A DNA stretch of 64,000 bases, from the NCBI GenBank assembly GCA_021648145.1, contig JAKITI010000007.1, positions 1,018 through 65,017 of the forward strand, read 5' to 3'. Shown one piece after another: positions 2,393-22,160 of the stretch. The stretch comes from Gammaproteobacteria bacterium. GTDB taxonomy: Bacteria > Pseudomonadota > Gammaproteobacteria > JAADGQ01. Positions within the stretch are counted from its first letter, which is position 1. The number at the start of each line of letters is the position of its first letter. Made by a program: the position numbers and the translations under genes. The notes beneath the pieces were generated by a model. The model worked only from the letters and a program-made list of their open reading frames with translations. It did not search any database and was not told the origin of the DNA.

Positions 2393-3034
<642 letters not shown>

Positions 3035-3486
3035 TTAGAGCAATAAAAATCTAATTGTACCTGAGCAGGGAAGTTCACGAAACGGGGTGGATGAAAACAA
3101 GACCTAAATCCTGGTTCCCACATAGAGATTTCGATATATTTAATTTAACAATACCAGTAAGAACAATAAAAACTCGAAACGGTTTGTCAGGTAAAGCCTG
3201 ATGAAGAAATATATGATAATCAGGTTAGATTAGGACGCTACACTGGCGTAGAAAATTTATTTTTTAATATTTTGTCAGTCAGACCGATAAAAAATCATCG
3301 GCTTCAGGTACTTTGTATAAAGTACTTCTGTATGATTGGAAGCTACGCTGATCAAAACTCCGTGAGATTACGTATAGCCATACAATAAGAAGGGAGGGTA
3401 GAATATAAGTCTAGCTGGCATCACTTTTGCACGTTTAACTTATGTTCTACTATTTATATAATTGTTATAAAATTTTTGGTACTCTA

Positions 3487-3726
3487 ATGACTTCTTCGAC
3501 GATAAGAAAAATACTGGATACACATGGCAGGCTCACTAAGCCTGCAGATGAATTGCAAGACCATAGTGATTTATATCATGCAGGTTTAACCTCATTAGCT
3601 ACGGTGAGTTTGATGTTAGCTATAGAAGAGGAGTTTGATATAGAATTTCCAGACTCAATGCTGGGTCGAAAAACCTTTGGTAGTATTGAAGCGATTGTTG
3701 ATGCTGTCGATGAACTACAGGAATAA
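3487..3726 (+). CDS. acyl/peptidyl carrier protein (phosphopantetheine-binding)
   Basis: About 80 aa with a DxxxLGLTSLAxV-like helix II (HAGLTSLATVSLMLAIEEEF) carrying the Ser for 4'-phosphopantetheine. The start is taken at internal ATG 3487 (MTSSTIRK). Confidence 0.7.
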   Translation: MTSSTIRKILDTHGRLTKPADELQDHSDLYHAGLTSLATVSLMLAIEEEFDIEFPDSMLGRKTFGSIEAIVDAVDELQE

Positions 3727-3832
3727 ATGCCCCTGCACCATTTGAAAGCACTTAGCGGATTTTTCAAACAAACCGCCTGATTTCGCTACTCTCCGAGGGT
3801 AGAAAATCTTTATAATTGTAAAGGGATAAAAA

Positions 3833-5020
3833 ATGTTCAATCATGAATCACTGAACTCTATGAAATTTAAGAAGTTAGTTTTAGAGGTTAAGCGAATTGG
3901 TAAAGATGTTATTGCGCCAAATGCTCATGATGTCGATGAAAAGGCTCGATTTCCTAAAGAAAGCTTTGATGCGCTGAAAGATTTAAGACTGCTGAGTGCT
4001 TATCTACCTGAAAGTATGGGTGGAATGGGGCTCGACATTGTACAAATTACTAAAATTTGTGAAGTATTGGGTCATTATTGTGGTTCGACCGCAATGATTT
4101 ACGCAATGCATAAAATCCAGGTCGCTTGTATTCTTCATAATTCGGGTGGGTCAGATTACTTCAAATCCTACTTAAAAAAATTATCAAGTGAACAAAGGCT
4201 TATTGCCTCAGCCACCACTGAAACAGGAGTGGGTGGGGATTTACGTTCGAGTATTTGTGCAGTTGAAAGCAGCGGGTCATCTTTCAAGTTAGTTAAAAAA
4301 GCCCCAGTAATATCGTACGGAATTGATGCCGATGACTTGATTATTACGGCACGTCGTAATCCTCAAGCGGCAAAAAGTGATCAAGTTCATGTTTTATTGA
4401 ATAAAGGGCAATATGAGCTGGAACAAATTTCAGGTTGGGATACTTTAGGGTTTCGTGGCACTTGCAGTTCTGGTTTTACTGTGACGGCAAAAGGTGAAAA
4501 TGAACAAATTTTACCGACCCCATTTGCGGATATTCTGAGCCAGACGATGCACCCTTTTGCACACATTACGTGGAGTGCATTATGGGTGGGAATTGCAGGC
4601 GATGCTGTTAATCTGGCACAGCAGTTTGTTAAACGTGAGGCTAAGCGAAATTTGGATATGCCACCTATATCAGCCATTCGACTGGGGGAGGTTGAGTGTG
4701 TATTGCAGACAATGCGAAATAATGTCGATGTGGCGGCAACTAACTACCTTAAAATGTTAAATGAGGGGGATGCCGAAGCCTTTACTAATTTTGGGTTTGG
4801 AATTCGTACAAATAATCTAAAAGTGGCGAGCTCTCAGTTAGTTGTTGATATTGTTGGCAAGGCTATGTTTATTTGCGGAATTTCAAGTTATCGCAATGAT
4901 TCAAAAACCAGTTTATGTCGTCAGTTGCGTGATGCTTATGGGGCTGCGCTGATGGTGAATAATGATCGTATTTTACTGCATAACTCGACGTTGCTTCTGA
5001 TGCATAAAGGAGATGAATAA
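3833..5020 (+). CDS. acyl-CoA dehydrogenase family protein (likely acts on an acyl/aminoacyl-S-carrier protein)
   Basis: 395 aa with an acyl-CoA dehydrogenase N-terminal/middle domain pattern (GGMGLDIVQITKICEVLGHYCGSTAMIYAMH...). It lies between the carrier protein gene and the synthetase-like ligase gene. Confidence 0.7.
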   Translation: MFNHESLNSMKFKKLVLEVKRIGKDVIAPNAHDVDEKARFPKESFDALKDLRLLSAYLPESMGGMGLDIVQITKICEVLGHYCGSTAMIYAMHKIQVACILHNSGGSDYFKSYLKKLSSEQRLIASATTETGVGGDLRSSICAVESSGSSFKLVKKAPVISYGIDADDLIITARRNPQAAKSDQVHVLLNKGQYELEQISGWDTLGFRGTCSSGFTVTAKGENEQILPTPFADILSQTMHPFAHITWSALWVGIAGDAVNLAQQFVKREAKRNLDMPPISAIRLGEVECVLQTMRNNVDVAATNYLKMLNEGDAEAFTNFGFGIRTNNLKVASSQLVVDIVGKAMFICGISSYRNDSKTSLCRQLRDAYGAALMVNNDRILLHNSTLLLMHKGDE

Positions 5021-5950
5021 GTGTGTTTGTCTCATGATTCTCTGGATGAAGCTTATAATTTTTATCGGCAACAATTATTAGAGGCTGGGTTATTACTTTC
5101 GTCGGGTGTGCCTGGTGTGTACGGCCTGAGTGGCGATTTTGAGGCTGTTGTTGAAGCTTTTGAAGGTTATGTTACCCGCATGGGTCACCATTTGGAGCCG
5201 GAGGTCGTACGCTTCCCTCCAATAATCAGTAGAAATACCTATCTATCTACTGATCATATTAAAACATTCCCTGACTTGATGGGGTCGGTTCACTCTTTCA
5301 AGGGAACCGAAAAGGATCATCTCAGGTTGGTACAAAAGCAGGAAGATGCAGAGAACTGGGCAGAAGAGTTAGACCCCACAGAGGTGATGATGGTGCCCGC
5401 TGCGTGTTACCCATTGTACCCAACCGCTGCAAATACTATATTGCCTGAAGAGGGTCGACTGGTTGACCTTAGAGCTTTTGTTTTTCGGCATGAGCCGTCA
5501 CCAGACCCTGCTCGTATGCAAATTTTTCGACAGAGAGAGTATGTTCGTCTTGGCACGCCTGAGCAGGCACATGCTCATCGGGATTATTGGTTGAAACGTG
5601 GAGAAGAGATGTTATGTGCACTCGGGTTGGATGTGAAGCCTGTTGTTGCAAATGACCCATTCTTTGGTCGAGGAGGACGAGTGATGGCTGCAACGCAAAA
5701 AGAGCAAGAGCTTAAGTATGAGCTTGTAGCGCCCATCGCATCGACAGAAAAATTAACCGCTATTGCATCCTGTAATTACCACCTTGATCATTTTGGTCAA
5801 GAGTTTAGTATTAAAACACCTGATGGAGCGTTTGCTCATACTGCATGTGTTGGCTTTGGCCTGGAGCGTATTACGCTTGCAATGTTCAAAAAACACGGTT
5901 TTGATGCTGAAAAATGGCCCCTTGAGGTTCGGGGGCTATTGGAAATGTAA
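5021..5950 (+). CDS. amino acid--[acyl-carrier-protein] ligase (truncated class II seryl-tRNA synthetase-like, no tRNA-binding domain)
   Basis: 309 aa. It has class II aaRS motif 2-like FRQREYVRLG and motif 3-like GFGLERITLAMF, the size of a bare SerRS catalytic core. A GTG start directly follows the ACAD stop. Its stop overlaps the next ATG (taATG). Confidence 0.7.
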   Translation: MCLSHDSLDEAYNFYRQQLLEAGLLLSSGVPGVYGLSGDFEAVVEAFEGYVTRMGHHLEPEVVRFPPIISRNTYLSTDHIKTFPDLMGSVHSFKGTEKDHLRLVQKQEDAENWAEELDPTEVMMVPAACYPLYPTAANTILPEEGRLVDLRAFVFRHEPSPDPARMQIFRQREYVRLGTPEQAHAHRDYWLKRGEEMLCALGLDVKPVVANDPFFGRGGRVMAATQKEQELKYELVAPIASTEKLTAIASCNYHLDHFGQEFSIKTPDGAFAHTACVGFGLERITLAMFKKHGFDAEKWPLEVRGLLEM

Positions 5951-6921
5951 TGCATCAGATAATTTCTCTAACCCCAGAAACTTACTGTCGTCATCGTATT
6001 CATGTTCAGGAAAGAGACTGGGCTGAAACCAACTGTTATGTTGATATCTGGATTGAATTATTGCATGCATTAGAATATGAACCGATTGCTGCGATGCCTT
6101 ATACCCTGGCGATTGATTTTGAAGGCGATCAATGGACTTTCTTTAAGTTTCCTTTGGCTGATTTATATGATCTCTATGGAATAGATGTTCAGGAGCTTGC
6201 GATCTGGCAGCCTCTGGTTCAACATATTGAACAACAAGTGGCTCTAGGAAAACCCGTATTGGTTGAGCTGGACTCTTATTATTTGCCCGATACAGCCGGA
6301 ACGGCTTATAAGATAGCGCATGTTAAATCGACAGTCGCCATTATTAAAATTGATGTGGAAAAACAACATATTGGTTATTTTCATGGCCAAGGATACTACT
6401 ATTTGTCGGGCGATGATTTTATTGATGTATTTCGCTTGCGTGGTGAGCAGGATCCCGCCGTGTTATCGCCTTACGTAGAAATTGCAAAGCAGCGGCGCGT
6501 CAATAAACTGGATGCTTCCCAGACGCTTGATGTTTCTCTGAAACTATTAAAAAAACAGTTAAGACTATTACCAGAGAGCAATCCTTTTTTTAGTTTCAAG
6601 AAAAGGTTTGAAGAAGATTTGAAATGGTTGATGCATGAAAATATTGATACATTCCATCAATATTCATTTACGACATTCAGGCAGTTTGGTGCTTGTTATG
6701 AATTAGCGGCTACTTATTTGGAGTGGCTATCCCAGCAAGGTGTCACTGGCTTGGTGGAGGCTAGGGAAAATATTAAGTCTATCTCTGAAACATCCAAGTT
6801 TTATCAATTTCAGTTGGCACGTGCAATGAGCCGTAAGAAACCGCTTAATCTTGCTCCAGTTGATGCGATGGCTGAACACTGGGACTTAGCAATGGATCAG
6901 CTAACCACTAAATTTTTATAG
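5950..6921 (+). CDS. hypothetical protein co-transcribed with the aa:CP ligase (possible acyl/aminoacyl transferase)
   Basis: 323-aa ORF whose ATG overlaps the ligase stop codon (translational coupling). No catalytic motif is recognised with confidence. Confidence 0.55.
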   Translation: MHQIISLTPETYCRHRIHVQERDWAETNCYVDIWIELLHALEYEPIAAMPYTLAIDFEGDQWTFFKFPLADLYDLYGIDVQELAIWQPLVQHIEQQVALGKPVLVELDSYYLPDTAGTAYKIAHVKSTVAIIKIDVEKQHIGYFHGQGYYYLSGDDFIDVFRLRGEQDPAVLSPYVEIAKQRRVNKLDASQTLDVSLKLLKKQLRLLPESNPFFSFKKRFEEDLKWLMHENIDTFHQYSFTTFRQFGACYELAATYLEWLSQQGVTGLVEARENIKSISETSKFYQFQLARAMSRKKPLNLAPVDAMAEHWDLAMDQLTTKFL

Positions 6922-6946
6922 GCTATGATGTAGAGAGTTAAATGGA

Positions 6947-9439
6947 ATGATTCAACTTGTCGATGACTGGTTTCTCACTCAATCTGAACCCGACATGTGT
7001 TTGGTACCTTCTGATCTAATAAACCAAAAACTCAATTGGCTGACGGCTTGTGTGCCTGGAACCGTTGCGCAGTCCTTGGCTGGAGCATGTCAATGGTCAC
7101 TTGATGATCGGGTTGATTTTGATGATTACGATTTTTGGTATAGGAAAAAATTTGATATAGCAGGTTTATCAGAACAGTTGCCTGTTTATTTAAACTTTTC
7201 TGGATTGGCAACGATTTGTGAAGTTTGGCTCAATGGGCAACGGATTTTAGAATCCAATAATATGTTTCTAAGTTATCAAGTTGATATTGCAAAATATATT
7301 CAGCCCAAGAACGAACTGTACATATGTTTTCGCTCATTAAATAAGGCTCTGTCTCAGCGCCGCCCTCGTCCGCGTTGGAAGACAAAGCTGGTCGAGCGGC
7401 AACAGTTGCGTTGGTTTCGTACCACTTTGCTTGGCAGAATTCCTGGTTGGACACCGCCAATTGCTCCTGTAGGGCCGTGGCAGACAATATCTTTAAGCGA
7501 ACACCTGGAGCCAATCAATATAGAGGTCACTCCATCAATTGAAGGGCGTGCGGGAGTTGTCAAATTCTCTTGTGATATTTATCATGACAGTGAAGGAAAA
7601 GTGGACGCTGTGCTCTCAGTCGGAGGTATTAATGTTCAGCTAACCATTGAGAAAAAAAGTGGTGGGAGTCGTCTATACGGAACACTTGAAATTGATGATG
7701 TTACGCTATGGTGGCCTCATACACATGGCAAACCTTCACTGTATCCGGCGCTACTGCGCATCAAAGTCGCAGAAAAAGAGAGATCACACGCACTCTCCTC
7801 TATCGGTTTTAAAGAGGTGCGCATTGATCGCTCCGAAAACGAGTTTTGTCTCACGGTAAACAATACAGACATCTTTTGCAGAGGGGCATGCTGGACTGTT
7901 AATGATATTATCTCCTTAACAGGTGATTTGGGCGCACTTGAGCATACGCTAACTCTAATGCGAGATGCAGGTGCAAACATGATTCGTGTGGGCGGTACGA
8001 TGGTTTATGAGCAAGATGCTTTTTATCAATTGTGTGACCGGCTCGGAATCATGGTTTGGCAGGATTTTATGTTTGCAAATATGGATTATCCTGTGGACGA
8101 CGACAACTTCAGGGAATCTATTCAAACTGAAGCGCATCAGCTTCTCGCACGTCTGCGTCAATATGTTTGCCTGGCAGTCTATTGTGGTAATAGTGAAATA
8201 GAGCAACAGGCCGCCATGCTGGGAATGCATTCTGACGCTTGGTCAAATGATTTCTTCTTGAAACAGTTGCCGGAACTTTGTAGTACACACCACCCTGGTA
8301 TTCCTTATGTTACTTCCACACCTTCAGGAGGGGCTTTGCCCTTTCATACTGACACAGGAGTGACTCACTATTATGGAGTAGGGGCATACCTGTGCTCAGT
8401 ATCTGAGGTGAGACAGCATAATGTAAAATTTACTTCGGAGTGTCTTGGATTTTCCAATATGCCTGTTGCCAAAACACGAAACTCAGTGTTGGCGGGGCAA
8501 ATTCCTGTGACCCATCATCCACGATGGAAGGAGAGGGTTCCCCGTGATTCAGGGACGGGATGGGATTTTGAAGATGTACGCGACCATTATTTGAAAGAGC
8601 TGTTTTCTGTTGATCCTGTGCAATTACGCAGTTTTGACAATGATAAGTACCTGGCATTGAGCGAAATAGTTTCTGGAGAAATGATGTCACAGGTGTTTGC
8701 CGAGTGGCGCAGTGATCATAGTGACTGCTCTGGAGGGTTGGTCTGGTTTCTAAAAGATCTTTTACCTGGTGCCGGATGGGGAATCATTGATAGCAATGGT
8801 TTACCTAAAGCTTGTTATTATTACTTGAAACGCTGCTGGCAGCCGATCTCTATATGTATGACCAATGAATCACTCAATGGCTTGCACCTGCATGTGATCA
8901 ATGACACGGCTCAAAATTTTACAGGTGAATTGGAGGTGACATTACTGAATGAGTCGAGTGTCACTATTGTTAATGTGAAGACGGAAGTGGTTGTAGATGC
9001 AAGATCAACGCGACTTATAGGGTTAGATCAGCTGCTTAATACATTTTACGATACAACATATTCTTATCATTTCGGTCCATCAAAACATAACGTTGTTTCA
9101 GTTCGCTTATCAAATAAAGAAGGGAGCGAACTGAATAGTGCATATTATTTTCCGAATGCAGAAGTTCCTCGTTTAGAGGAAAACTCTGGAATTATTGCTG
9201 AGTTGGTTGAGTCTGGTAAAGAGAGGTATCAGCTGAATTTGTCATGTGAAAAATTTCTTTATACGGTGAATGTTGATATACCCGGTTTTATTCCAGATGA
9301 TAACTATTTTCATTTGATGCCTGGCATTAAAAAGAGTGTCGAGGTCATTCGAGTGGGTGATGGTCAAAAACCTGCAAAAGGTTATGTGAGTGCTTTAAAC
9401 ATAAGTGAAGATGTTAGAGTTAAAGTTATTTTTCCCTGA
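6947..9439 (+). CDS. glycoside hydrolase family 2 protein (beta-mannosidase-like), cytoplasmic
   Basis: 830 aa. The GH2 sugar-binding region and TIM-barrel region (ANMIRVGGTMVYEQDAFYQLCDRLGIMVWQDFMFAN...YCGNSEIEQ with acid/base Glu) closely resemble beta-mannosidases. No signal peptide. Confidence 0.8.
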   Translation: MIQLVDDWFLTQSEPDMCLVPSDLINQKLNWLTACVPGTVAQSLAGACQWSLDDRVDFDDYDFWYRKKFDIAGLSEQLPVYLNFSGLATICEVWLNGQRILESNNMFLSYQVDIAKYIQPKNELYICFRSLNKALSQRRPRPRWKTKLVERQQLRWFRTTLLGRIPGWTPPIAPVGPWQTISLSEHLEPINIEVTPSIEGRAGVVKFSCDIYHDSEGKVDAVLSVGGINVQLTIEKKSGGSRLYGTLEIDDVTLWWPHTHGKPSLYPALLRIKVAEKERSHALSSIGFKEVRIDRSENEFCLTVNNTDIFCRGACWTVNDIISLTGDLGALEHTLTLMRDAGANMIRVGGTMVYEQDAFYQLCDRLGIMVWQDFMFANMDYPVDDDNFRESIQTEAHQLLARLRQYVCLAVYCGNSEIEQQAAMLGMHSDAWSNDFFLKQLPELCSTHHPGIPYVTSTPSGGALPFHTDTGVTHYYGVGAYLCSVSEVRQHNVKFTSECLGFSNMPVAKTRNSVLAGQIPVTHHPRWKERVPRDSGTGWDFEDVRDHYLKELFSVDPVQLRSFDNDKYLALSEIVSGEMMSQVFAEWRSDHSDCSGGLVWFLKDLLPGAGWGIIDSNGLPKACYYYLKRCWQPISICMTNESLNGLHLHVINDTAQNFTGELEVTLLNESSVTIVNVKTEVVVDARSTRLIGLDQLLNTFYDTTYSYHFGPSKHNVVSVRLSNKEGSELNSAYYFPNAEVPRLEENSGIIAELVESGKERYQLNLSCEKFLYTVNVDIPGFIPDDNYFHLMPGIKKSVEVIRVGDGQKPAKGYVSALNISEDVRVKVIFP

Positions 9440-9510
9440 TGTCGCCATAAATTGTAATTTAAATAGATAAATAAACAGTAAATAATGCAGGGAGAAAGCT
9501 TCAAAATATA

Positions 9511-11334
9511 ATGGTTGATTCTGATTTAGTCGTTCGTACGCCCTTTTATTTTGGCCCAGATGGCAAGAAATTGATTGGCTGGTTGCATACAAACGCCACA
9601 ACTGAAAATCTTGATACAGCAGTGGTTGTATGTCCCCCACTCGCTGTAGAGTATATGAGCACCTACCGCTCAATGCGTTATGTGGCTGATTATTTTGCGT
9701 TGGCGGGAATACCTGCAATACGGTTTGATTATCATGGTACGGGTGACTCATCTGGTTTTAATGATGAGGGTAATCGCCTTGATCATTGGCTTTGGAGTAT
9801 TGAGCAAGCAATGAGCGAGGTCAAAAAACTTTCAGGGTGCTCCAAGGTGGGTCTGTTTGGTTTGCGAATGGGTGCGACGCTCGCTTCATTGGTTTCAGCG
9901 AGAGTTGATGTTGATTTTTTAGTTCTATGGGCTGCTTTAGAGAGTGGTCGGAGATATATTCGTGAAATAAAAACAATTCAGATGACTGGAGTCAGTCAAA
10001 CTGGGGTCGCGCCCAGTTTTGTTGAAGCTGGAGGAATGGTTTATTGGCCTCAAACGGCTGATGCAATCAGTCAGATAGATTTAATAAAGATTACACCTAA
10101 GGCTTCTCGTGTATTGATTATTCCCCGGGATGACTTGCAAGTAAAGACCAAATTGAAAGATGGCTGGGTCGCTCAAGGGGTTAGTGTAGAGCAGTTTGAA
10201 TATTCGGGTTATTCCGAAATGTTGTTGTTGGCACTTAAATCGGTTGTGCCTCATGAGACTATTCATAAGGTGGTGAGCTGGGTCAGAGCGGGAATTGATT
10301 GTCCGAGTGCTACAGAGTGTGAAGCTGCAGATTTAGATGTTGCTACGAGCATATGGGTCAAGTCCATCTATGATAAAGAAAAGTATGGTCAAAATGAATC
10401 AAAAGTGAAAGAGTCATTTGTTCGATTTGGATCGGATAACAACAATTTTGCTATCTTGGTCGAACCGCCTGAAATAATTTCACCAGAACGTCCTATCATC
10501 ATTATTGCGAGCTCGGGTGCTACGCACCGAGTTGGTCCGAGCCGATTATATGTGTCTTTAGCCAGAAGTTTGGCCTCTGAAGGTTTTCGCTGTTTGAGAA
10601 TTGATATCCCTGGCTTGGGGGATAGTATTACTCATGACCACGAACAAGAAAATAGAGAGTACATTGATAAATCAAGTGATGTGATTCGTCAAGCTATGGA
10701 GTCATTCGGCTCTGCATACAAAAAAAACAGATACGTTGTGACAGGTTTGTGTTCAGGTGCTTATTTCTCTTTTCATGCGGCTCTGGATCTTAAGAATGTG
10801 GATATCGTAGAGAGTATTTTAATTAACCCTCTTACCTTTTACTGGTACGAAGGTATGGAGTTTGATAGTTCACCTGCAAAGAATTTTGGGCACTGGAATT
10901 GGTATATGAAGGCGTTGAAGGATCCCAGTAGCTGGTTAAGATTAATAAGAGGAGGGTCAGATTATTCTGAACTTTATGAAACGATAAAAAATCGAATAAA
11001 GATTATCATATCCGCAAAAATAAATTCAATAAAGAGTAGCAGAAGTGATAATGTCGCTGCTGAAGGTCATTCTAAAAATAATTTAAATATTGATTTAATG
11101 CAAATTGCTTCTCGCAACAGGCACTTATCATTTATTCTTGCAAGAAGCGATCCTGGGTATGATATTTTGATGACCAGCGCAGGAAAAACCGCGAAAAAAC
11201 TTATTAACGATGGCAAAATAGATATTCATTTCATTGAAGATGCGGATCATACGTTCTCAAAGTATCAACCCCGATGTGATGCGATTGATTGTATGGTTAA
11301 GCATATTATTTTTCGGTATGGAAAAGAGTTGTAA
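9511..11334 (+). CDS. tandem alpha/beta-hydrolase fold protein
   Basis: 607 aa with two alpha/beta hydrolase-like halves. The second carries a GxSxG-type elbow (GLCSGAY). The first has a degenerate elbow. Confidence 0.65.
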   Translation: MVDSDLVVRTPFYFGPDGKKLIGWLHTNATTENLDTAVVVCPPLAVEYMSTYRSMRYVADYFALAGIPAIRFDYHGTGDSSGFNDEGNRLDHWLWSIEQAMSEVKKLSGCSKVGLFGLRMGATLASLVSARVDVDFLVLWAALESGRRYIREIKTIQMTGVSQTGVAPSFVEAGGMVYWPQTADAISQIDLIKITPKASRVLIIPRDDLQVKTKLKDGWVAQGVSVEQFEYSGYSEMLLLALKSVVPHETIHKVVSWVRAGIDCPSATECEAADLDVATSIWVKSIYDKEKYGQNESKVKESFVRFGSDNNNFAILVEPPEIISPERPIIIIASSGATHRVGPSRLYVSLARSLASEGFRCLRIDIPGLGDSITHDHEQENREYIDKSSDVIRQAMESFGSAYKKNRYVVTGLCSGAYFSFHAALDLKNVDIVESILINPLTFYWYEGMEFDSSPAKNFGHWNWYMKALKDPSSWLRLIRGGSDYSELYETIKNRIKIIISAKINSIKSSRSDNVAAEGHSKNNLNIDLMQIASRNRHLSFILARSDPGYDILMTSAGKTAKKLINDGKIDIHFIEDADHTFSKYQPRCDAIDCMVKHIIFRYGKEL

Positions 11335-11349
11335 AGGAAGGAAGTTATT

Positions 11350-12117
11350 GTGTTCGATTCGATCAACAAAGAGCTGTATTCAAGCAGTGATGGAGTTCAC
11401 TCCTATATCAATACTACATTGCAGGCACCCGAGGTCAGCATCCTGGTAAAATATAAAGATGCCTATTACGGTAAAAAAATATTAGACATTGGTTGTGGTG
11501 CTGGCCGGACATCCCATTATTTCCGTAATTTTACTCATCAATATATTGGCGTGGACTACTCAAAGCCCATGGTTGATTTTTGTAAAAGCCAGTACCCTGA
11601 ACTGGCATTTGAGCATTGTGATGCAAGAGATTTAAGCCATTTTGATGATGGTGAATTTGATTTTGTCATGTTTTCATACAATGGGATAGATTATATTGGT
11701 CATGATGATCGCATGCAGGTTTTAGATGAAATACAGCGCGTTTTAAAAAATGGCGGGGTGTTTGTTTTTTCGGCACATAATAGAAAATATAACCACATTA
11801 TTCTAAAACCAAAGCTACAGTTGACACTTCACCCAGTTAGATTGCTTAAAAATGTAGTGAGTTATTATAAGCAAGAAAAAAATCATAAAGAGCTGATATC
11901 AAATGAGGTACACAATAAAAGCTTTTCGATTTTAAATGATAATGGAAATAATTTTGGCTTGCTAACCTATTATATTGACAGGTATAACCAAACTAAACAG
12001 CTAACAAAGAAGGGTTTCAAATTACTGGAAATGTTTCAGTTGAATGGCCAGGTTTTGTTGCCTGAGAAAGATGATTCTGACAGCGGTTGGATCTACTATG
12101 TATCCGAAAAAATATAG
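11350..12117 (+). CDS. class I SAM-dependent methyltransferase
   Basis: ILDIGCGAGRTSHY (motif I) and VFVFSAHN (post-I/II). GTG start. Confidence 0.75.
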   Translation: MFDSINKELYSSSDGVHSYINTTLQAPEVSILVKYKDAYYGKKILDIGCGAGRTSHYFRNFTHQYIGVDYSKPMVDFCKSQYPELAFEHCDARDLSHFDDGEFDFVMFSYNGIDYIGHDDRMQVLDEIQRVLKNGGVFVFSAHNRKYNHIILKPKLQLTLHPVRLLKNVVSYYKQEKNHKELISNEVHNKSFSILNDNGNNFGLLTYYIDRYNQTKQLTKKGFKLLEMFQLNGQVLLPEKDDSDSGWIYYVSEKI

Positions 12118-12157
12118 CAAGTCAGAATGTCCAAGTTACTACGTGCTCGCTCTTTAC

Positions 12158-13258
12158 TTATGCCTTATTGAAATAGTCATATAATTTATATAAATATTTT
12201 ACCCATTGGTTGCGTATAATTTGTACATTGACAATGTTGATACTGGAGCGGGTTAGTCGCTCTTTGTAGTGTGTGTTTTTTCCTTTGCCAGCTAACATAT
12301 CATAGCTGTTTATATCGCTAGCGCATGCGTGCTCTATTTCATAGCCAAAATGTATATAACCTAATGCAATTTTTTTATGAACACTTTCATCAAATCCTGC
12401 TTGAATATTATACTTTTGATTATTAACAAGATAGTTGTACTGGATCGAAACGGGATTGTTATCTATAGATAATATTGAGAAGCATAATGCATTTCGTTGA
12501 TCCATTAATTTCGCTAGAGTCGTATTGAAACGTAATCGTTTATCCCGAAAAACGGGGGATCCCCACCTTTTAGCGTGTAGGTGATTAAGTTGTTTGAATT
12601 GAGACTCAATATCATCGTTCTGTTTTGGATTGAAGTGGATCTCTCCCAGCTGATCAAGTATTTTTCGCCGATTAAATAAGCTAAGGCGTGTATTCTTCCC
12701 TAAATTTTTAATATAGTGGTCAAAGCTTCCGGTTGTTTCTATAAAAAAGCTTTTGAACTCCTCTGCTATGCGATAGTAGGAATTAGGAATGGGCTTCTCT
12801 TTTTTTAGCAGCTTGTATGTGTCTGAATCTTTTTTTAAGTCAACGAGTATGAGTTCATCCCATGTTGATAAGGTGTTTATATGTTTGTAGAAAGCGTTCA
12901 CAACTTCATTTGATAGTGATTTTTCTGCAATAAAATCAAGGAGCTCAGTTCGCATCGTCGCTTTACCATGCCAGCAGTTACCAATGAACTGCAGCCTATG
13001 AGTCACAATGATCTTTTTTGACTTAGCTTTTGATAGATATAAAGGTGCAAGACCAACCAGATTACCCTTGTCATCTACGGCGGCCAAAAGTTGTAACTGC
13101 ATCTGCTCAGGTTCGGCAAAGGTGTGCCACCATGTATGTTGCCACTCCCAACTCATAAATAGTGGATCTGAGTTTGATTTTTCTAATAGTAAATTCCAGG
13201 CGTGCCTGGAATCTCTAAACTGTTTTTCATTCCACGTCTGGATGTTGATTTGCTTCAT
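12158..13258 (-). CDS. GNAT/FemAB-fold acyltransferase (BioF2/CelD-like)
   Basis: 366 aa. The size and the WNxKQFRD...HxHAKRW region resemble the CelD/BcsL and FemAB-type acyl/aminoacyl transferase fold. Assignment is by overall resemblance only. Confidence 0.5.
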   Translation of the reverse strand: MKQINIQTWNEKQFRDSRHAWNLLLEKSNSDPLFMSWEWQHTWWHTFAEPEQMQLQLLAAVDDKGNLVGLAPLYLSKAKSKKIIVTHRLQFIGNCWHGKATMRTELLDFIAEKSLSNEVVNAFYKHINTLSTWDELILVDLKKDSDTYKLLKKEKPIPNSYYRIAEEFKSFFIETTGSFDHYIKNLGKNTRLSLFNRRKILDQLGEIHFNPKQNDDIESQFKQLNHLHAKRWGSPVFRDKRLRFNTTLAKLMDQRNALCFSILSIDNNPVSIQYNYLVNNQKYNIQAGFDESVHKKIALGYIHFGYEIEHACASDINSYDMLAGKGKNTHYKERLTRSSINIVNVQIIRNQWVKYLYKLYDYFNKA

Positions 13259-13432
13259 ATAAGGTAAAATATCTCAAGCCATTCGTATAAGTTGTGAGTC
13301 AGGTCATATTTCGTGACCGTTCTTTAGAGATTTTTAGTAAAGACAGGTAAATAGGGGGATAGGGGGATATCCATACCATACTTATAAAATTAATGTGCAT
13401 CCTTGCTATTCCGAATATTATAAATAGCCGAG

Positions 13433-14236
13433 CTATTTAATAAACCGATGAGGGTAGATAATTTTCATAATAAAAGCTGGAATCATTTTCTTGATTTTTT
13501 TACGTAGTTCATCTGGCATCAAATCGCCAAAACTATTTAGAAGACGCAGGTACTTTCCACGGTAGCCATTGGTTCTGAGCTTTCTGTCATACCCCAGATC
13601 ATTTTCACTTAATTCAAGTTGAAAGAATTGGCTGATTTTTCTGGCTGTTTCTTTTGAATTAAGAGCGTAATCTGAATAGTTCACAACAATATGTGGAATA
13701 TTGTATTGTTGCATTGCATGCTCTGCTGTTTTCATATGGTGCTCAATGCGCCTAAAAGAGGCTTGTTTATCATCGTTGTTCCATCTTAGGCGAAGAAAAC
13801 TTTGATGTATCTCTTTTGGGTCACGTTTTAGCAAAATAACCTTTGTGTTTGATTGCTTTAATAAAGGCCACCAATACCCAATTGTGTAACATAAACTCGG
13901 GTCTTTCCATAACCAGGGGGTATGTTCTTCAAACTGTGCAATCAGCTCTTTATGTGCTTTTGATGGTGTAAGGGAAAGTATTTTTTCTGTTTGTTGATCA
14001 GAAATAGCATCAAATAACCACGTATTTTCACATTCAAATCCAGCTGCTTTAAAAACCTCTGCGTTACATTTTTTTAAAGATTCAGCCTCCCAAAATCCAT
14101 ATGGATTATATTCATTGGCTTGCTGCAGTTGATTTTCTTCATTTTCAGTAACAAAGTAGCCACGATTTTTGAATATTGCAGCAGTCATGCTGGTTCCTGA
14201 GCGAGGTGAGCCAACAATGATGACATTTACACTCAT
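13433..14236 (-). CDS. sulfotransferase family protein
   Basis: IIVGSPRSGTSM (5'-PSB PAPS-binding loop) and LLKRDPKEIHQSF (3'-PB RDP motif). Confidence 0.7.
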   Translation of the reverse strand: MSVNVIIVGSPRSGTSMTAAIFKNRGYFVTENEENQLQQANEYNPYGFWEAESLKKCNAEVFKAAGFECENTWLFDAISDQQTEKILSLTPSKAHKELIAQFEEHTPWLWKDPSLCYTIGYWWPLLKQSNTKVILLKRDPKEIHQSFLRLRWNNDDKQASFRRIEHHMKTAEHAMQQYNIPHIVVNYSDYALNSKETARKISQFFQLELSENDLGYDRKLRTNGYRGKYLRLLNSFGDLMPDELRKKIKKMIPAFIMKIIYPHRFIK

Positions 14237-14254
14237 TTTTTAACGTCTCGTTCT

Positions 14255-15034
14255 CTATTCACTTATTTCAGGTTTTTTATACAGGTGGACAAAGCGATCT
14301 GTTCGTTTGATGACTTCTTTTTTCCAGATATCCAATTGATAGTTGTCATCAGGGTTTCTGAGCACATCCAATGCTTTTACAAACTTGAAACCAGCACTTT
14401 CAATATCTTTTTTCGCCCACTCTTCATCAATCCGGTGCAGTTTAGGGGCACTCTCTTTTCCTGTTCCAGGCTCTGCCGCATGGTCAATAATTAATAATTT
14501 TCCGCCTGGTTTTAGCGCGGTGATGACTTGCTCAAAAAACTCTTCTCTATTGGCAGTAATGATGGGGTCTTTTCGTGGAACATAGATGTCATGATAGCTT
14601 AGACCAATGAAAATAAGGTCTGTATTGCTCGGTAGTTTCATATCAGCAAATTCGCTATCGAGGCGGACAACATTTTTCAGTCGTTCATTTTTTAATCGTT
14701 TCTCGAGATCTTCTTTTGAGAAATTTAGAAATAGCGAGTTATTTTGTATAGTCACACGTCCATCATCACCCACAATGTAATTAAAGAGTTCTGAGTAGTA
14801 ACCACCGCCGCCAAGAAGATCAATAACAGTGTCTCCAGATTCAAGGCCAGAAAAGTTTAATACTTCGAGTGGTTTGCGTAATTTATCTTTTGAATGATCC
14901 TCTGTATATCGATCTGGCTGATGTATCGCTCTTTCATTAAGAGTCATGCTATCTAGATCTTTGGAACATCCAGCTACAAATACAACTACAGTAAGAAACA
15001 GGACTTTAATACGACCTAATATATTCATAATCAT
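14255..15034 (-). CDS. class I SAM-dependent methyltransferase, lipoprotein
   Basis: Lipobox LTVVVFVAGCSK and glycine-rich SAM motif VIDLLGGGGYYSELF. Confidence 0.65.
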   Translation of the reverse strand: MIMNILGRIKVLFLTVVVFVAGCSKDLDSMTLNERAIHQPDRYTEDHSKDKLRKPLEVLNFSGLESGDTVIDLLGGGGYYSELFNYIVGDDGRVTIQNNSLFLNFSKEDLEKRLKNERLKNVVRLDSEFADMKLPSNTDLIFIGLSYHDIYVPRKDPIITANREEFFEQVITALKPGGKLLIIDHAAEPGTGKESAPKLHRIDEEWAKKDIESAGFKFVKALDVLRNPDDNYQLDIWKKEVIKRTDRFVHLYKKPEISE

Positions 15035-15122
15035 TACCTTGTTTTATCTCTCAAAAATAAGTGGCTCAACTGATTTTTACAAGATTATACAGCACACTGT
15101 TAAGAATACAGTTTTTTTAATA

Positions 15123-16520
15123 TCAGATTTTTCCATCTTTGGCGGCTTTGAGTACGAGTGCATCAAATTTATCCGCTGCCATAAGGTTACGTTCTGCGAC
15201 AATAATGTTGACAGGTTTACCCGTTTTTTCAGACTCTTTAGCGACTTCAGCCGCAGCGGCATAACCGATATCTGTATTCAATAATGTTGCAAGGGCAACA
15301 CTGCTGTGCAGAAAAGCTTTACAGCGATCACGATCGACTTGTAAACCTTTTAGGTTTTTTTCAGTGGCGGCGTTAGTTGCATTGGTGAGCCACTCCATCA
15401 TATCGAATAGTGCTGAACCGAGGGCGGGCATCATCACGTTGAGTTCCAGTTGTCCTGCCTGAGTCATATAACTGATAGCCGAATCTTGCCCAAGAACCTG
15501 AAAGCAGACTTGATTGAGCATTTCAAACATCACAGGGTTCACTTTGCCCGGCATGATGCTGGAGCCTGGCTGTACGGCAGGCAGCATGATTTCACCCAGA
15601 CCTGTGCGTGGCCCTGAGGCGAGCAGACGCATGTCGTTAGAGATTCGTATTAACTCCAGAGAGACTTCACGAATGGTTGATGACAGGTGTTGTAGATCAT
15701 TCATAGACTGCATTTGTGCCGCCAGATCATCGGCTGGACGAATCGCCTCGAAGGTCAGCTGCGCCAGTGCTTTTGCGACATTTTTAATATAGCCCGGTGA
15801 GGTATTAAGCCCTGTGCCGGCAGCACTGCCTCCCAGTCCAACTTCACAAAGCGGATCACGGCAGCTTTCTAAACGTGCTGCACAGCGCTTTAAAGTCCAG
15901 GCGTAAGCACTGAATTCACGACCTAATGTTGTGGGTACGGCATCTTGCAAGTGGGTTCGGGCACTTTTAACTGTATCTTCTTCTTGTTTGCCAATGCGTG
16001 CATATTCTGTGGCCATATCTTCAATAGCAGCAATTAAACGGGGGAGTTTTTTAAGCGCTGTTAAACGAATGGCTGTGGGGATTGTATCGTTGGTGCTTTG
16101 CCCCATGTTGACATGGTCGTTGGGATTAATGGGGCTGTATTCACCTTTTTCCCCCCCCAGAGCGACACTGGCTAAATTGGCAATCACTTCATTGCTGTTC
16201 ATGTTATGGCTGGTGCCTGCACCAGCTTGAAAACGGTCGACTACAAATTGATCAATATAATGACCTTCAAGAATTTGATCGCAAGCGGCAATAATTGCTT
16301 TGGCTTGTTTGTCGTCAAGCCAGCCCCCTTGTTGGTTGGCCTCTGCCGCAGCACGTTTGATTTTTACGTGAGACTGTACGAAGTCTCGGTCAGGTGCTCG
16401 GCCACTGATCGGGAAGTTGGCGATGGCACGGGCGGTCTGAATGCCATACCAGGCATTCGCTGGAACTTGAAGTTCGCCTAAACTGTCTTTTTCAATACGG
16501 TAATCATCTGTTTGAGTCAT
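15123..16520 (-). CDS. aspA: aspartate ammonia-lyase
   Basis: 465 aa in the fumarase/aspartase family. The signature is GSSIMPGKVNPV (aspartase-type, V after NP). Confidence 0.85.
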   Translation of the reverse strand: MTQTDDYRIEKDSLGELQVPANAWYGIQTARAIANFPISGRAPDRDFVQSHVKIKRAAAEANQQGGWLDDKQAKAIIAACDQILEGHYIDQFVVDRFQAGAGTSHNMNSNEVIANLASVALGGEKGEYSPINPNDHVNMGQSTNDTIPTAIRLTALKKLPRLIAAIEDMATEYARIGKQEEDTVKSARTHLQDAVPTTLGREFSAYAWTLKRCAARLESCRDPLCEVGLGGSAAGTGLNTSPGYIKNVAKALAQLTFEAIRPADDLAAQMQSMNDLQHLSSTIREVSLELIRISNDMRLLASGPRTGLGEIMLPAVQPGSSIMPGKVNPVMFEMLNQVCFQVLGQDSAISYMTQAGQLELNVMMPALGSALFDMMEWLTNATNAATEKNLKGLQVDRDRCKAFLHSSVALATLLNTDIGYAAAAEVAKESEKTGKPVNIIVAERNLMAADKFDALVLKAAKDGKI

Positions 16521-17368
16521 TATTTGTGTTCTCCTGAAGAAATTTTAAGTAATACTTTGTCAAGTGCGCGTGAGGTCAACAGTCGCCGCAGTGCTGCAAA
16601 AAGGTAGGCTGGAAATGTGACGGGGTAGCGTAGTTTAGGTCGAGGACTTTCCAGTGCATGAATAAGCTTTTTGAGTACCGCATCGGGCGGCAGTGTAAAA
16701 GGCGCAACAGGGCCAGGATTTGTAAGGCGCTTTTCGATCGACTGGTAAATCGTGCGATGAACACTGTTTTCTGAGTCGATATTTTCCTTATACTTTTTGT
16801 AGCCATTGGCACGAAACTGGCTGGTAATAGGGCCTGGCTCAATCAGTGAGATTAAAATGTCGCTATTATTGATCTCTAAACGTAGTGTATCGACTAACCC
16901 TTCCAGTGCATATTTGCTGGCATTATAAGCGCCGCGATAGGAGAGTGCGACATAGCCCAGCAGTGAGCTGTTATAGATAATACGCCCATGCCCTTGTTGC
17001 CGCATGACTGGAATGATGCAGTTTGTCAGTTCCAGCGTTCCGAATAGATTGGTTTCAAACTGTGCACGTAATACGTCACGAGTTAAATCTTCCACGGCAC
17101 CCGGTTGACCATAAGCTGCATTATTAAAGAGTGCATACAAAGTGCCCCCTGTACGAGATAACAACTCATCAACTGCGCTATGAATGGAGTCACTTTGATC
17201 TAAATCCAATAGAAAGCTTTCAAGGCCTTGTGCTTGCAGTGAATCAACATCTTTTTGCTGACGTGCAGTCGCAAATACACGATAGCCTTTTTTGTGTAGT
17301 CCCAATGCACATGCTAAACCAATGCCGCTGGAACAGCCGGTGATTAATATTGTTTTTTTGTTTGTCAT
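16520..17368 (-). CDS. SDR family oxidoreductase
   Basis: TGCSSGIG Rossmann motif, NNAAYG and a YxxxK catalytic pair (YNASK). Confidence 0.8.
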   Translation of the reverse strand: MTNKKTILITGCSSGIGLACALGLHKKGYRVFATARQQKDVDSLQAQGLESFLLDLDQSDSIHSAVDELLSRTGGTLYALFNNAAYGQPGAVEDLTRDVLRAQFETNLFGTLELTNCIIPVMRQQGHGRIIYNSSLLGYVALSYRGAYNASKYALEGLVDTLRLEINNSDILISLIEPGPITSQFRANGYKKYKENIDSENSVHRTIYQSIEKRLTNPGPVAPFTLPPDAVLKKLIHALESPRPKLRYPVTFPAYLFAALRRLLTSRALDKVLLKISSGEHK

Positions 17369-17376
17369 GTGGAGAG

Positions 17377-17796
17377 CTAAGTTTCTCTTGTAAACGGATT
17401 TTTCAGAAGTATTCCAGAATAAAATTGACTGTTATTTAAATCTTCAGAGAGGATGATGTTGCATTTTGAATGTTCGGCCGCACTGATGATGCATGCATCC
17501 CAGAAATTGATCTGGTATGAAGTTTTGATCTCTACACTGCGTCTTATCAGAGCTGGGCTTTGTGGGATGATTTCCAGCCCTTCCAAGAGAAACAACTGCC
17601 TGAGAATGACATCTTGGCGTTGATGTAACTTATTTAGGGCTACATGAGCATACTCCTGTAATACCTGTGTAGAAATAACACCTGTTCCAAGCCGCATATG
17701 CTTTGCTACGATATTCAGAGCCTTTTTTTGCTTCTCCTCATCACGAGCATCGTTGGCATAAATTATGATGTTTGTGTCAATAAAAGTTTTGTTCAT
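17377..17796 (-). CDS. vapC: PIN-domain toxin (VapC-like)
   Basis: 139 aa. Reading FIDTNIIIYA (Asp at position 7-8) as the first acidic residue of a PIN domain. It is 1 nt downstream of a small antitoxin-like ORF. Confidence 0.7.
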   Translation of the reverse strand: MNKTFIDTNIIIYANDARDEEKQKKALNIVAKHMRLGTGVISTQVLQEYAHVALNKLHQRQDVILRQLFLLEGLEIIPQSPALIRRSVEIKTSYQINFWDACIISAAEHSKCNIILSEDLNNSQFYSGILLKNPFTRET

Positions 17797-18032
17797 CAGT
17801 CGTTATAACGATCATAAATTTCATCTCTGGAAAACTTGAATCCGCTAGCAGATTTCCCCGGCATATTACTCGCTATTCGTACAAACTCATCGGCTGATTT
17901 TTCTGCATTACATTCGCCTGTAAGTTTGAGCAAATAATCTCTAATCAACTGGTTTAGCGATGTATTGTGCGCGCTGGCATATTCACGCCCCTTTTTGATC
18001 AGTTCTGTATCTGCTGAAAGTGTAATGTTCAT
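17796..18032 (-). CDS. vapB: antitoxin (VapB-like)
   Basis: 78-aa ORF whose stop overlaps the vapC start. It has a DNA-binding-like N-terminus. Confidence 0.55.
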   Translation of the reverse strand: MNITLSADTELIKKGREYASAHNTSLNQLIRDYLLKLTGECNAEKSADEFVRIASNMPGKSASGFKFSRDEIYDRYND

Positions 18033-18150
18033 AGTTTTCTGCCCTCAAATAATTTTTATGTGCTGTAAGTGTGCAAGTGTAGCGCGGCATTTTATTTTGG
18101 TCAAACTTTAGTGCAGTCAGCGTAATGGCTTTACAGGTCGCATGTTGAAC

Positions 18151-18612
18151 TTAATGACATTGAGGGCAAACTCCTGACCACACTCGTGTACCCCATTCAA
18201 TAGACCACTCTTCTTTACATTTGGGGGTATGGTCATCAGCGCTTGTATCGACATCAAGTAACAATTTACATACTCGGCAGTAAATATGGTCATGTGTTTC
18301 TGTATTGCTATCATATATTGCCTGTCCATCCACATAAAAGCGCCGAAGCAATCCTGATGATTCTAGTTGTGACAACGTCAAATAGACTGTATTTGGCGAA
18401 ATAGTTGGAAAACGCTGGCATAACTCTTCATGCAATTCATTCGGTGTGCGGTGGCACTTCTCCAGCAGCAATTGCTTGCAAATAGCGATACGCTGCGGGG
18501 TTGCCCGCATCCCGTTATTATTTAATAACGTACTAATTTCAGTATCATTCCGTTTTCCATTCATATAATTAATCCTTTTTACTCTAAATTCGGGTCGATT
18601 ATCCCTTTTCAT
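18151..18612 (-). CDS. Fur family transcriptional regulator (PerR/Fur-like)
   Basis: MRATPQRIAICKQLL winged-helix region, HDH metal site and a C-terminal CxxC...CPQC pair. The true start may be an internal Met. Confidence 0.75.
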   Translation of the reverse strand: MKRDNRPEFRVKRINYMNGKRNDTEISTLLNNNGMRATPQRIAICKQLLLEKCHRTPNELHEELCQRFPTISPNTVYLTLSQLESSGLLRRFYVDGQAIYDSNTETHDHIYCRVCKLLLDVDTSADDHTPKCKEEWSIEWGTRVWSGVCPQCH

Positions 18613-18703
18613 TAATAAATTGACAAATAAACCAAACCTACTTTACTATTACTTAGGAGTTATTACTAATAAGTTTTAAATATTAAATTAAAAGAGGTAC
18701 TCA

Positions 18704-19723: not shown

Positions 19724-19750
19724 ACCAATCACAGTTTTTTTCTTGGGCTC

Positions 19751-19797
19751 ACATAGACCTCTTTTTAGTTGGTTTATGTGGGCTTTTTTGTGCTCGA
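19751..19797 (+). terminator. putative intrinsic terminator after the cytochrome c peroxidase gene
   Basis: GGGCTCACATAGACC...GGTTTATGTGGGC forms a stem with G-U pairs and is followed by TTTTTT. Confidence 0.45.
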
Positions 19798-19856
19798 AAA
19801 TAACACCATGATAGGTATATACTGGAGTTCTCTTAGGCTTTTTGAGGGTTGATACC

Positions 19857-20300
19857 ATGTCTGCTTATCGTCATATTTTGCTTGCAATTGATTTTACTCC
19901 TGCTGCATACCAAGTTGTTCAGCGGGTTAGGATTTTACTTGGAGAAGAGACAAAATTAACTGTGTTAAATGTTGTGGAGTATGCTTTACCGCTCGGTTTT
20001 GGGGATGATTTTACTCCAATGCCGAATTTATTGATCGAAGAGAGTATGCTTTTAGAAAAAGCAAAAGAGTCTCTATCACGCTTTGTTGATAAAGCTGGGT
20101 TGGCTTATGCAGAACAAATGATCAAAGTGGGTGGAACACAGAATGAAATTATTCAGGTTGCTGAACAAAAAAATGTTGACTTGATTATTTTGGGTTCTCA
20201 CGGTCGTCATGGCATCAGTTTGTTGTTAGGTTCGACTGCAAATGGTGTATTGCACCATGCATCTTGTGATGTTTTGGCGGTACGCATTAAAGAAAAATAG
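19857..20300 (+). CDS. universal stress protein
   Basis: UspA fold: HILLAIDF...DLIILGSHGRHG...GSTANGVLHHASCDVLAV. Confidence 0.8.
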   Translation: MSAYRHILLAIDFTPAAYQVVQRVRILLGEETKLTVLNVVEYALPLGFGDDFTPMPNLLIEESMLLEKAKESLSRFVDKAGLAYAEQMIKVGGTQNEIIQVAEQKNVDLIILGSHGRHGISLLLGSTANGVLHHASCDVLAVRIKEK

Positions 20301-20311
20301 TTTGTATTCTA

Positions 20312-22156: not shown

Positions 22157-22160
22157 GAAA

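Follow-up and report, generated by a model that had tools for sequence, protein, structure and literature searches.

Gene organization of the locus

The DNA analysed here is a 64,000-nt stretch (hereafter, the window) of contig JAKITI010000007.1, from a gammaproteobacterial metagenome-assembled genome (MAG). Six closely packed genes occupy positions 3487–11334 of its plus strand. They are predicted to encode a free-standing carrier protein, a protein with the acyl-CoA dehydrogenase (ACAD) fold, a ligase that joins an amino acid to a carrier protein (an aa:CP ligase), a DUF1839 protein, a beta-mannosidase-like protein of glycoside hydrolase family 2 (GH2) and a fusion of two alpha/beta-hydrolase domains (Table 1). 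All coordinates are positions in the window. A first-pass annotation, made from the sequence, had described the first four genes as a tightly packed cassette. All four were found where it had placed them, packed as it had described: the TAA stop codon of the ACAD gene (5018–5020) abuts the GTG start of the ligase gene at 5021, and a single base is shared by the stop codon of the ligase gene and the DUF1839 start codon (TAATG at 5948–5952). The conserved unit is larger than this cassette, however, as it comprises six genes, with the GH2-like gene and often the double hydrolase gene added.

The gmk gene (2393–3010, minus strand) is divergent from the carrier protein gene, across a 476-bp gap. 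The best sigma-70-like match in the upstream region lies at 3435–3462, and promoter-like sites were not more frequent there than in shuffled sequence. Promoter and terminator scans together likewise gave site counts no higher than in shuffled sequence, so that the ends of the operon cannot be set by such scans. The possibility of a riboswitch or other leader RNA ahead of the operon was considered and rejected, as no Rfam family matched this region at E≤1. An ATG at 3442 opens a longer open reading frame (ORF) for the carrier protein, but this ORF is probably too long; the start at 3487 appears better, because the homologues are 79 aa long and the NF005480 model aligns to residues 4–79.

Table 1. 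Features of the six-gene locus and of the genes that follow it (window coordinates).
Feature	Position	Strand	Size and evidence
Upstream intergenic region	3011..3486	+	476-bp gap; presumed operon promoter region
Carrier protein, free-standing	3487..3726	+	79 aa; PF00550 E 8.6e-10; NF005480 108.5 bits
ACAD-fold protein	3833..5020	+	395 aa; PF02771 E 2.5e-16
Predicted amino acid--[carrier protein] ligase (class II synthetase core)	5021..5950	+	309 aa; NF005479 435.4 bits
DUF1839 protein	5950..6921	+	323 aa; PF08893 E 9.4e-117
GH2 beta-mannosidase-like protein	6947..9439	+	830 aa; PDB 5n6u E 1.5e-67
Double alpha/beta-hydrolase fusion	9511..11334	+	607 aa; weak TIGR03101 and TIGR03100 matches
Methyltransferase	11350-12117	+	Pfam
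FemAB-like GNAT	12158-13258	-	Pfam (PF13480)
Sulfotransferase	13433-14236	-	Pfam
Methyltransferase-like	14255-15034	-	Pfam

The module is conserved across about ten phyla

A word-indexed search returned 7576 ligase homologues at E≤1e-10 among 8000 candidates, and 221 clusters were found at E≤1e-30 in an exhaustive search of representatives of 50%-identity clusters. In data with one genome per species, a relative is encoded in 584 of the 600 pattern matches listed, so that at least 584 species carry one. The 80 closest among the matches listed belong to Gammaproteobacteria, Betaproteobacteria including Burkholderia, Alphaproteobacteria, Planctomycetota, Gemmatimonadota, Acidobacteriota, Chloroflexota, Verrucomicrobiota, Actinomycetota and Myxococcota. 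Relatives are carried by Kangiellaceae and other Gammaproteobacteria, and copies from Pleionea, Aliikangiella and gammaproteobacterial MAGs already bear the NCBI name 'amino acid--[acyl-carrier-protein] ligase'. The module is thus spread over about ten phyla and is neither rare nor out of place here, contrary to the earlier suggestion that such a cassette would be unusual in a gammaproteobacterial context.

Synteny was measured by tblastn of the window proteins against 80 loci, leaving out of each count the loci whose contig stops short of the expected position; tblastn was preferred since simple ORF calling gave spurious antisense ORFs in GC-rich loci. In the loci of other genomes that could be assessed, order and strand were as in the window for the carrier protein in 69 of 71, for the ACAD-fold protein in 71 of 72 and for DUF1839 in 71 of 74. 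With such recurrence, the arrangement is far beyond chance. The GH2-like gene follows closely (60 of 65 loci), and the double hydrolase gene is at its canonical place in 33 of 58 loci and elsewhere in the locus in nine more.

The carrier protein and its ligase

The carrier protein scores 108.5 bits with NF005480, for a cut-off of 72. Its best match outside its own family is DltC, at 36 bits, far below the cut-off of 68. The serine expected to carry the phosphopantetheine arm is S36, in the motif GLTSL (codon 3592–3594).

The 309-aa protein matches NF005479 over residues 6–308, with 435.4 bits against an equivalog cut-off of 357, and aligns to the crystallised ligase Bll0957 (PDB 3mey/4h2w) over residues 24–307 with an E-value of 5e-69. 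Together with the carrier protein score, these matches bear out the initial assignment of the cassette to the aa:CP ligase systems. Alignments to seryl-tRNA synthetase (SerRS) cover the catalytic core: PRK00960 aligns only to residues 104–304 of the ligase (model positions 293–502 of 518), for 80 bits against a cut-off of 611, and residues 115–302 align to positions 305–504 of the type-2 SerRS in PDB 3w3s. The N-terminal tRNA-binding domain is absent in these alignments.

Active-site residues were inspected in the Bll0957 alignment and in 42 homologues from other genomes. C129, E158, C276, R156 and R283 are identical to the Bll0957 residues and are at least 95% conserved. R156 and R283 are the arginines of motifs 2 and 3 of class II synthetases; C129, E158 and C276 align with the Cys, Glu and Cys that we take to be the zinc ligands of the published structures, and would form a putative zinc site. 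The motifs had been located in part correctly before: GFGLER (278–283) is motif 3 as proposed, whereas FRQREYV (169–175), which had been read as motif 2, is its second strand, the motif 2 arginine being in FRHE (155–158). The features that the first-pass annotation had singled out for checking, namely class II residues, a putative zinc site, loss of the tRNA-binding domain and a carrier protein serine in a phosphopantetheine context, were therefore all found, and none of the three observations that it had named as refuting the assignment was made. As judged from these models and residues, the 309-aa protein is a genuine member of the aa:CP ligase family, built on a SerRS core of the methanogen type.

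The closest characterised systems are Bll0957 and Bll6282 of Bradyrhizobium and Atu2573 of Agrobacterium. The window ligase belongs to the same NF005479 family, has the same size (about 310 aa) and lacks the tRNA-binding domain as they do. It shares with them the putative zinc-site residues and the arginines of motifs 2 and 3, and a dedicated carrier protein lies beside the ligase likewise; the host, in contrast, is here a gammaproteobacterial MAG. In the 2010 work of Mocibob, the characterised aa:CP ligases are said to use glycine or alanine. The ligase itself is otherwise a routine case, which automatic annotation can recognise, in a family whose structures have been solved, and nothing else about it is distinctive.

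DUF1839 resembles carrier-dependent papain-like transferases

The 323-aa product of the fourth gene was present as first described, but it need not stay a protein of unknown nature, as it is a DUF1839 protein for which a role can be predicted. It is 100% identical in sequence to an NCBI entry from a gammaproteobacterial MAG. Pfam gave PF08893 alone, with no match to BtrH_N (PF14399). Sequence relatives in the PDB were sought with the single sequence and with a profile, and none was found (nothing below E 0.6 with the profile). An AlphaFold2 model was then built from 34 homologues (pLDDT 84.9), and has two domains, alpha/beta at the N-terminus and helical at the C-terminus. With this model, Foldseek retrieved only three proteins at E≤1e-4; these close structural relatives include two carrier-dependent transferases, and also AziU3. 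Unrelated papain-like proteases came next, at E≥0.1. Four residues of DUF1839 are invariant: C29, which is placed at the start of helix 29–40, H124, T128 and H145.

This agrees with a survey of papain-like enzymes, in which DUF1839 was placed in the superfamily with a C-(T/S)-H triad and its role was guessed, from genomic context, to be glycan processing (PMC10318531). CcbD transfers proline from a carrier protein to its catalytic cysteine, and from there to the amino group of an amino sugar, using a Cys-His-Glu triad (PMC12945683). CtaG is a papain-like ligase composed of an N-terminal papain-like part and a C-terminal helical part, with a Cys11-His128-Asp144 triad and a ping-pong mechanism; its relatives BtrH and AsbE also use carrier-bound donors and free acceptors (PMC12865890).

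The DUF1839 model shares the two-part, papain-like and helical fold with CcbD/LmbD (lincosamides), CtaG (closthioamide), BtrH (butirosin) and AsbE. An invariant cysteine is found near the N-terminus, at the start of a helix (C29, versus C19 in CcbD and C11 in CtaG), and the gene is likewise beside those for a free-standing carrier protein and a loading enzyme. Three differences should be noted. Identity to these enzymes is 10–15%, with no match at the sequence level; the triad reported for DUF1839 has histidine in third position (PMC10318531), unlike that of the CcbD/CtaG class; and the loading enzyme is here a class II aminoacyl-tRNA synthetase core, instead of the ANL adenylation domain used in that class. 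From the model, DUF1839 is predicted to be a papain-like, two-part, carrier protein-dependent cysteine transacylase, with C29 as candidate nucleophile. For a carrier protein thioester as its putative acyl donor, the support comes from context: the gene overlaps that of the ligase and is in one operon with the carrier protein gene.

The ACAD-fold protein is not a canonical dehydrogenase

The ACAD fold of the second protein is supported by its PF02771 match (E 2.5e-16), and two conserved segments, SATTE-G-GGD and WDTLGFRGT, resemble by our own reading the flavin-contact regions of ACADs. The protein is probably flavin-binding. The catalytic base was looked for at two positions, which we take to be the canonical ones in enzymes of the medium-chain acyl-CoA dehydrogenase (MCAD) type and of the long-chain acyl-CoA/isovaleryl-CoA dehydrogenase (LCAD/IVD) type. 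The first, in the YEGT loop, is found seven residues after the RDA motif and corresponds to V375 (ungapped register after R366-D367-A368), the segment reading LMVNNDRI as compared with IY[E/T]GTNQI. The second, in helix G, is Q263, or R in relatives. Neither Glu nor Asp is present at either position throughout the family, and profile alignments to solved ACADs stop at R366-D367-A368, just ahead of the catalytic segment.

Because the catalytic glutamate is missing, the protein is not a canonical alpha,beta-dehydrogenase; from its residues, oxidation of the amino group or a non-redox reaction seems more likely than alpha,beta-dehydrogenation. Fold matches of equal strength were obtained with monooxygenases of the ACAD fold, with an N-oxygenase and with a desulfinase. 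The analogy previously drawn with the conversion of prolyl-S-PCP to pyrrolyl-S-PCP (PCP, peptidyl carrier protein) is accordingly weak, and unsupported at the residue level. Carrier-bound amino acids are oxidised by PigA/RedW and ColB1, from which the window protein differs by the lack of the canonical glutamate at both known positions; ZmaG/ZmaI, in the case of aminomalonyl-ACP, offer a further comparison.

The GH2-like protein and the double hydrolase

The GH2-like protein has the five-domain GH2 architecture, with Pfam GH2 and mannosidase Ig domains. Its CGNSE417 segment aligns with WCGNNE (acid/base) and its FTSE498C segment with FMSEYG (nucleophile) of solved beta-mannosidases, and both E417 and E498 are at least 95% conserved in 53 homologues. 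The enzyme, which retains this catalytic pair, is predicted to be intact in its activity. On reading the N-termini of this and the other module proteins, no hydrophobic signal-like stretch was seen (no predictor was run). A role in anti-phage defence was considered and rejected, as PADLOC returned a generic match to the GH2 domain alone.

In the double hydrolase, residues 12–156 resemble TIGR03101 (77.6 bits, cut-off 202.75) and residues 329–596 resemble TIGR03100 (115.3 bits, cut-off 168.45), the hydr2 and hydr1 hydrolases of exosortase-A systems, respectively. In those systems, each family comes with an adenylating enzyme as well as a carrier protein. The window protein differs from them in that both scores are below the cut-offs, the two domains are fused in one chain, and an arginine is found at the nucleophile position of the N-terminal half (R119, in GLRMG versus GLSMG in solved esterases). 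The C-terminal half has a cysteine, C414, in GLCSG. Both R119 and C414 are at least 95% conserved in 32 homologues. Since the invariant R119 replaces the nucleophilic serine, the N-terminal domain is probably not a hydrolase.

Glycan-related genes near the module in other genomes

The flanks of related loci repeatedly carry genes for GT2 and GT4 glycosyltransferases and Acyl_transf_3, GDSL and Bac_transf genes, and in eleven loci a polyprenyl-phosphate sugar transferase is encoded within 10 kb.

The gene content of individual loci varies. In Pleionea litopenaei (16249–20930 of its locus), the six-gene core is followed downstream by genes for a formyltransferase-like protein, another double alpha/beta-hydrolase, two membrane acyltransferases of the Acyl_transf_3 type and a GDSL esterase. 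The Aliikangiella locus has one additional GT2 and three GT4 genes. In another relative (L086, 4638–8141), a divergent gene for a 1167-aa protein resembling a nonribosomal peptide synthetase (NRPS), with AMP-binding and PP-binding domains, adjoins the carrier protein gene, and an Acyl_transf_3 gene is also added. Finally, a Thiomonas MAG (9634–17365 of its locus) has a minimal set composed of the carrier protein, the ligase and a 657-aa double-hydrolase-like protein, without ACAD, DUF1839 or GH2; four convergent GT4 genes come directly after it.

Burkholderia cenocepacia NCTC13227 has a five-gene core without the double hydrolase (7399–20897 of its locus). The order is a Crp/Fnr regulator, then the carrier protein, ACAD, ligase, DUF1839 and GH2 genes, then a sigma-54 activator with a VpsR domain, followed by a small GNAT, ManC and a beta-helix protein. 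This order matches that of the published genes of the Bep exopolysaccharide region, namely Bcam1349 (BerA), Bcam1342 (BerB), Bcam1341, Bcam1340 and Bcam1339 (PMC3584217, Table 2; PMC5552954). By synteny, the five-gene core would correspond to the Bcam1343–1348 stretch between berB and berA, beside the Bep cluster. Inclusion of the cassette in the published Bep cluster (Bcam1330–1341) was rejected: it is not in the table of PMC3584217 and lies, by synteny, just beyond. A link with the Burkholderia AFC-BC11 lipopeptide cluster was also discarded: its adenylation enzyme is of the ANL type and its transferase is KAS III-like, so that the two are unrelated. Neither Bcam1343–1348 nor I35_5194–5199 was mentioned in the literature searched.

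Proposed scheme and alternatives

The finding is real and the core identification right, for a family that is known, widespread and already annotated. Its interest is in the context, that is, the fixed partners of the ligase: carrier protein, ACAD-fold protein, DUF1839, GH2 and often a Cys-type hydrolase. The downstream chemistry had been presented as unknown in the first-pass annotation, and a 2022 review agrees, still describing the biological role of aa:CP ligases as unknown (PMC9437257). With moderate confidence, we read the locus as a cytoplasmic module that transfers aminoacyl groups in thiotemplated fashion, stands on its own and has five to six conserved core genes; its target is probably a sugar or glycan. 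The genes are taken as one module because they recur in this order in about ten phyla.

Four steps can be proposed. In the first, which is well supported, the ligase would activate a small amino acid as an adenylate and then thioesterify it to the phosphopantetheine on S36. This step follows from the NF005479 and NF005480 scores above cut-offs, the similarity to Bll0957 and the conserved putative zinc-site and motif 2 and 3 residues. The second step is much less certain: the ACAD-fold protein might act on the carrier-bound group. In the third, suggested by fold, conservation and operon position, DUF1839 would take the acyl group onto Cys29 and hand it to an amine or hydroxyl acceptor, by a ping-pong mechanism as in CcbD, CtaG and BtrH, and would thus be the functional counterpart of an NRPS condensation domain. 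The CtaG-like two-part model, the invariant C29 at a helix start, the CcbD precedent and the papain-like classification of DUF1839 (PMC10318531) argue for it. In the fourth, suggested by context, the acceptor would be a sugar or glycan intermediate, which the GH2-like protein may bind, trim or transglycosylate, and the Cys-type hydrolase domain might provide a second acyl-transfer or a release step. The link with glycans is drawn from the conserved GH2 glutamates, the glycan genes in the flanks, the synteny with the B. cenocepacia Bep region and the Thiomonas GT4 genes. The likely end product would be an aminoacyl-decorated sugar, exopolysaccharide or other glycoconjugate.

A more specific version can be put forward tentatively, and we hold it to be possible without thinking it probable: the six genes would be the downstream half of the aa:CP ligase system, in which DUF1839, as condensation enzyme, attaches an acyl group of the glycine or alanine type, possibly in oxidised form, to amino sugars or glycans as acceptors; exopolysaccharides, Burkholderia Bep for instance, would be decorated in this way. 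The Dlt system (DltA/DltC/DltB/DltD), which D-alanylates teichoic acids, has the same logic, as a free-standing ligase charges an approximately 80-aa carrier protein with a small amino acid that is destined for a glycopolymer. DltA, however, is a member of the ANL superfamily, whereas the window ligase is a class II synthetase core, and its transfer step relies on the membrane proteins DltB and DltD, outside the cell, whereas the module proteins show, on reading, no hydrophobic signal-like stretch at the N-terminus.

If the scheme is correct, a function would be found for a Pfam domain of unknown function, and a common route of amino acid addition to bacterial surface glycans would be revealed. 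In its more specific version, the module would be a widespread NRPS-independent machine, and the purpose of aminoacyl-carrier proteins, a question open since 2010, would be answered. The predicted transferase, with its Cys29 and CcbD/CtaG-like fold, gives a testable scheme for the module, and B. cenocepacia offers a tractable model, where the module is beside the genes of the Bep biofilm polysaccharide, regulated by cyclic di-GMP.

Several points weigh against a glycan-decorating module. The scheme rests on computation, so that amino acid, acceptor and product are predictions, and a glycoside hydrolase that works in the cytoplasm fits oddly into a biosynthetic pathway. No glycosyltransferase or export gene was found in the 64-kb window. 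For DUF1839, the C29/H145/T128 arrangement is a candidate triad read from conservation, no sequence-level link to CcbD or CtaG was found, and AziU3, one of its three structural matches, is to our understanding not a transacylase. The Burkholderia genes are assigned by synteny only, and in the longest ORF of the presumed BerB the GAFTGA motif is at residues 228–233, versus 208–213 as reported (PMC5552954). Finally, the published repeat unit of Bep carries no amino acid; its structure was solved in NaOD (PMC7084887), and we would expect this treatment to strip ester-linked substituents.

The main rival is a sugar-free product. The module would then make a small soluble or lipid-linked metabolite (a modified amino acid, a dipeptide, an aminolipid or a signal), with DUF1839 or the Cys-type hydrolase coupling the carrier-bound amino acid to an amine, a second amino acid or a lipid, and with the GH2-like protein as a scaffold or serving another purpose. 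CtaG and AsbE, of the same structural class as DUF1839, use non-sugar acceptors, the L086 relative has the adjacent divergent gene with adenylation and PCP domains, and the window holds no glycan-assembly genes. The Cys nucleophile of the hydrolase, in a GxCxG motif, also recalls thioester-using polymerases and transferases. Against this, the GH2-like gene is nearly as conserved as the core and has kept both catalytic glutamates, and the flanking genes are repeatedly glycan-related. We regard a sugar-free product as rather unlikely, while giving it a real share of the probability.

The roles of the two acyl-handling proteins could also be reversed: DUF1839 would then be a thioesterase for editing or release, and the real acyltransferase would be the Cys-type alpha/beta-hydrolase. 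Papain-like enzymes are mostly hydrolases, the Thiomonas variant keeps the hydrolase with the carrier protein and the ligase but has no DUF1839, and the related hydrolase pairs of exosortase-A systems, to which the matches are weak, are likewise found with an adenylating enzyme as well as a carrier protein. DUF1839 is however the more strictly syntenic of the two, two of its few close structural relatives are carrier-dependent transferases, and CtaG is reported to keep water away from its thioester (PMC12865890). Such a reversal seems to us improbable.

About equally improbable is an alpha,beta- or ring-type dehydrogenation of the aminoacyl-S-carrier by the ACAD-fold protein, as by PigA, RedW and ColB1, the oxidised acyl group being the point of the pathway. 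Weak N-terminal NCBIfam matches to PigA and RedW and the segments read as flavin-region motifs speak for it. It is countered by the family-wide lack of Glu or Asp at both base positions, by the profile alignments that end before the catalytic segment and by the equally strong matches to other ACAD-fold enzymes; in addition glycine, reportedly a preferred substrate of the characterised ligases, has no beta-carbon. As for a seryl-tRNA synthetase paralogue charging tRNA, the label 'seryl-tRNA synthetase' given by some sources to homologues and the weak SerRS matches count for very little beside a ligase score above cut-off, an adjacent dedicated carrier protein, an alignment to the catalytic core alone and the missing tRNA-binding domain, and this reading can be set aside.

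Neighbouring genes and the rest of the window

Four genes follow the module (11350–15034; Table 1). Relatives of all four adjoin the core in the closest relative (L002/L085), in a different order, but in none of the other loci compared; they are taken to be lineage-specific accessory genes. The tailoring-enzyme island in which the cassette had been said to be embedded is shared with the closest relative only and ends at an ordinary aspartate ammonia-lyase gene. The lyase gene and the next one (15123–17368) were rejected as tailoring genes, the second encoding a generic oxidoreductase of the short-chain dehydrogenase/reductase (SDR) family that barely reaches the NCBIfam equivalog cut-off. The FemAB/CelD-like GNAT (PF13480, 12158–13258) adjoins the module both in the window and in its closest relative (L085). 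Activated amino acids are used by some enzymes with this domain, and the GNAT could thus add a further transferase specific to the lineage.

The rest of the window is composed of housekeeping genes and of genes for large proteins that are rich in repeats and probably at the surface; glycan-assembly genes are absent. A RecD-like and a RecB-like gene are neighbours at 20312–25799 (minus strand), with no RecC-like gene upstream of them; a PAS histidine kinase and a LuxR-type response regulator come next instead, encoded as a pair (26217–28005). Three very large, probably surface-exposed proteins are encoded at 36686–50222. The first (1350 aa) has FG-GAP repeats and an OmpA domain, the second (999 aa) cohesin, CHB_HEX_C and laminin-G-like domains, and the third (1980 aa) 24 FG-GAP repeats and thrombospondin type 3 repeats.

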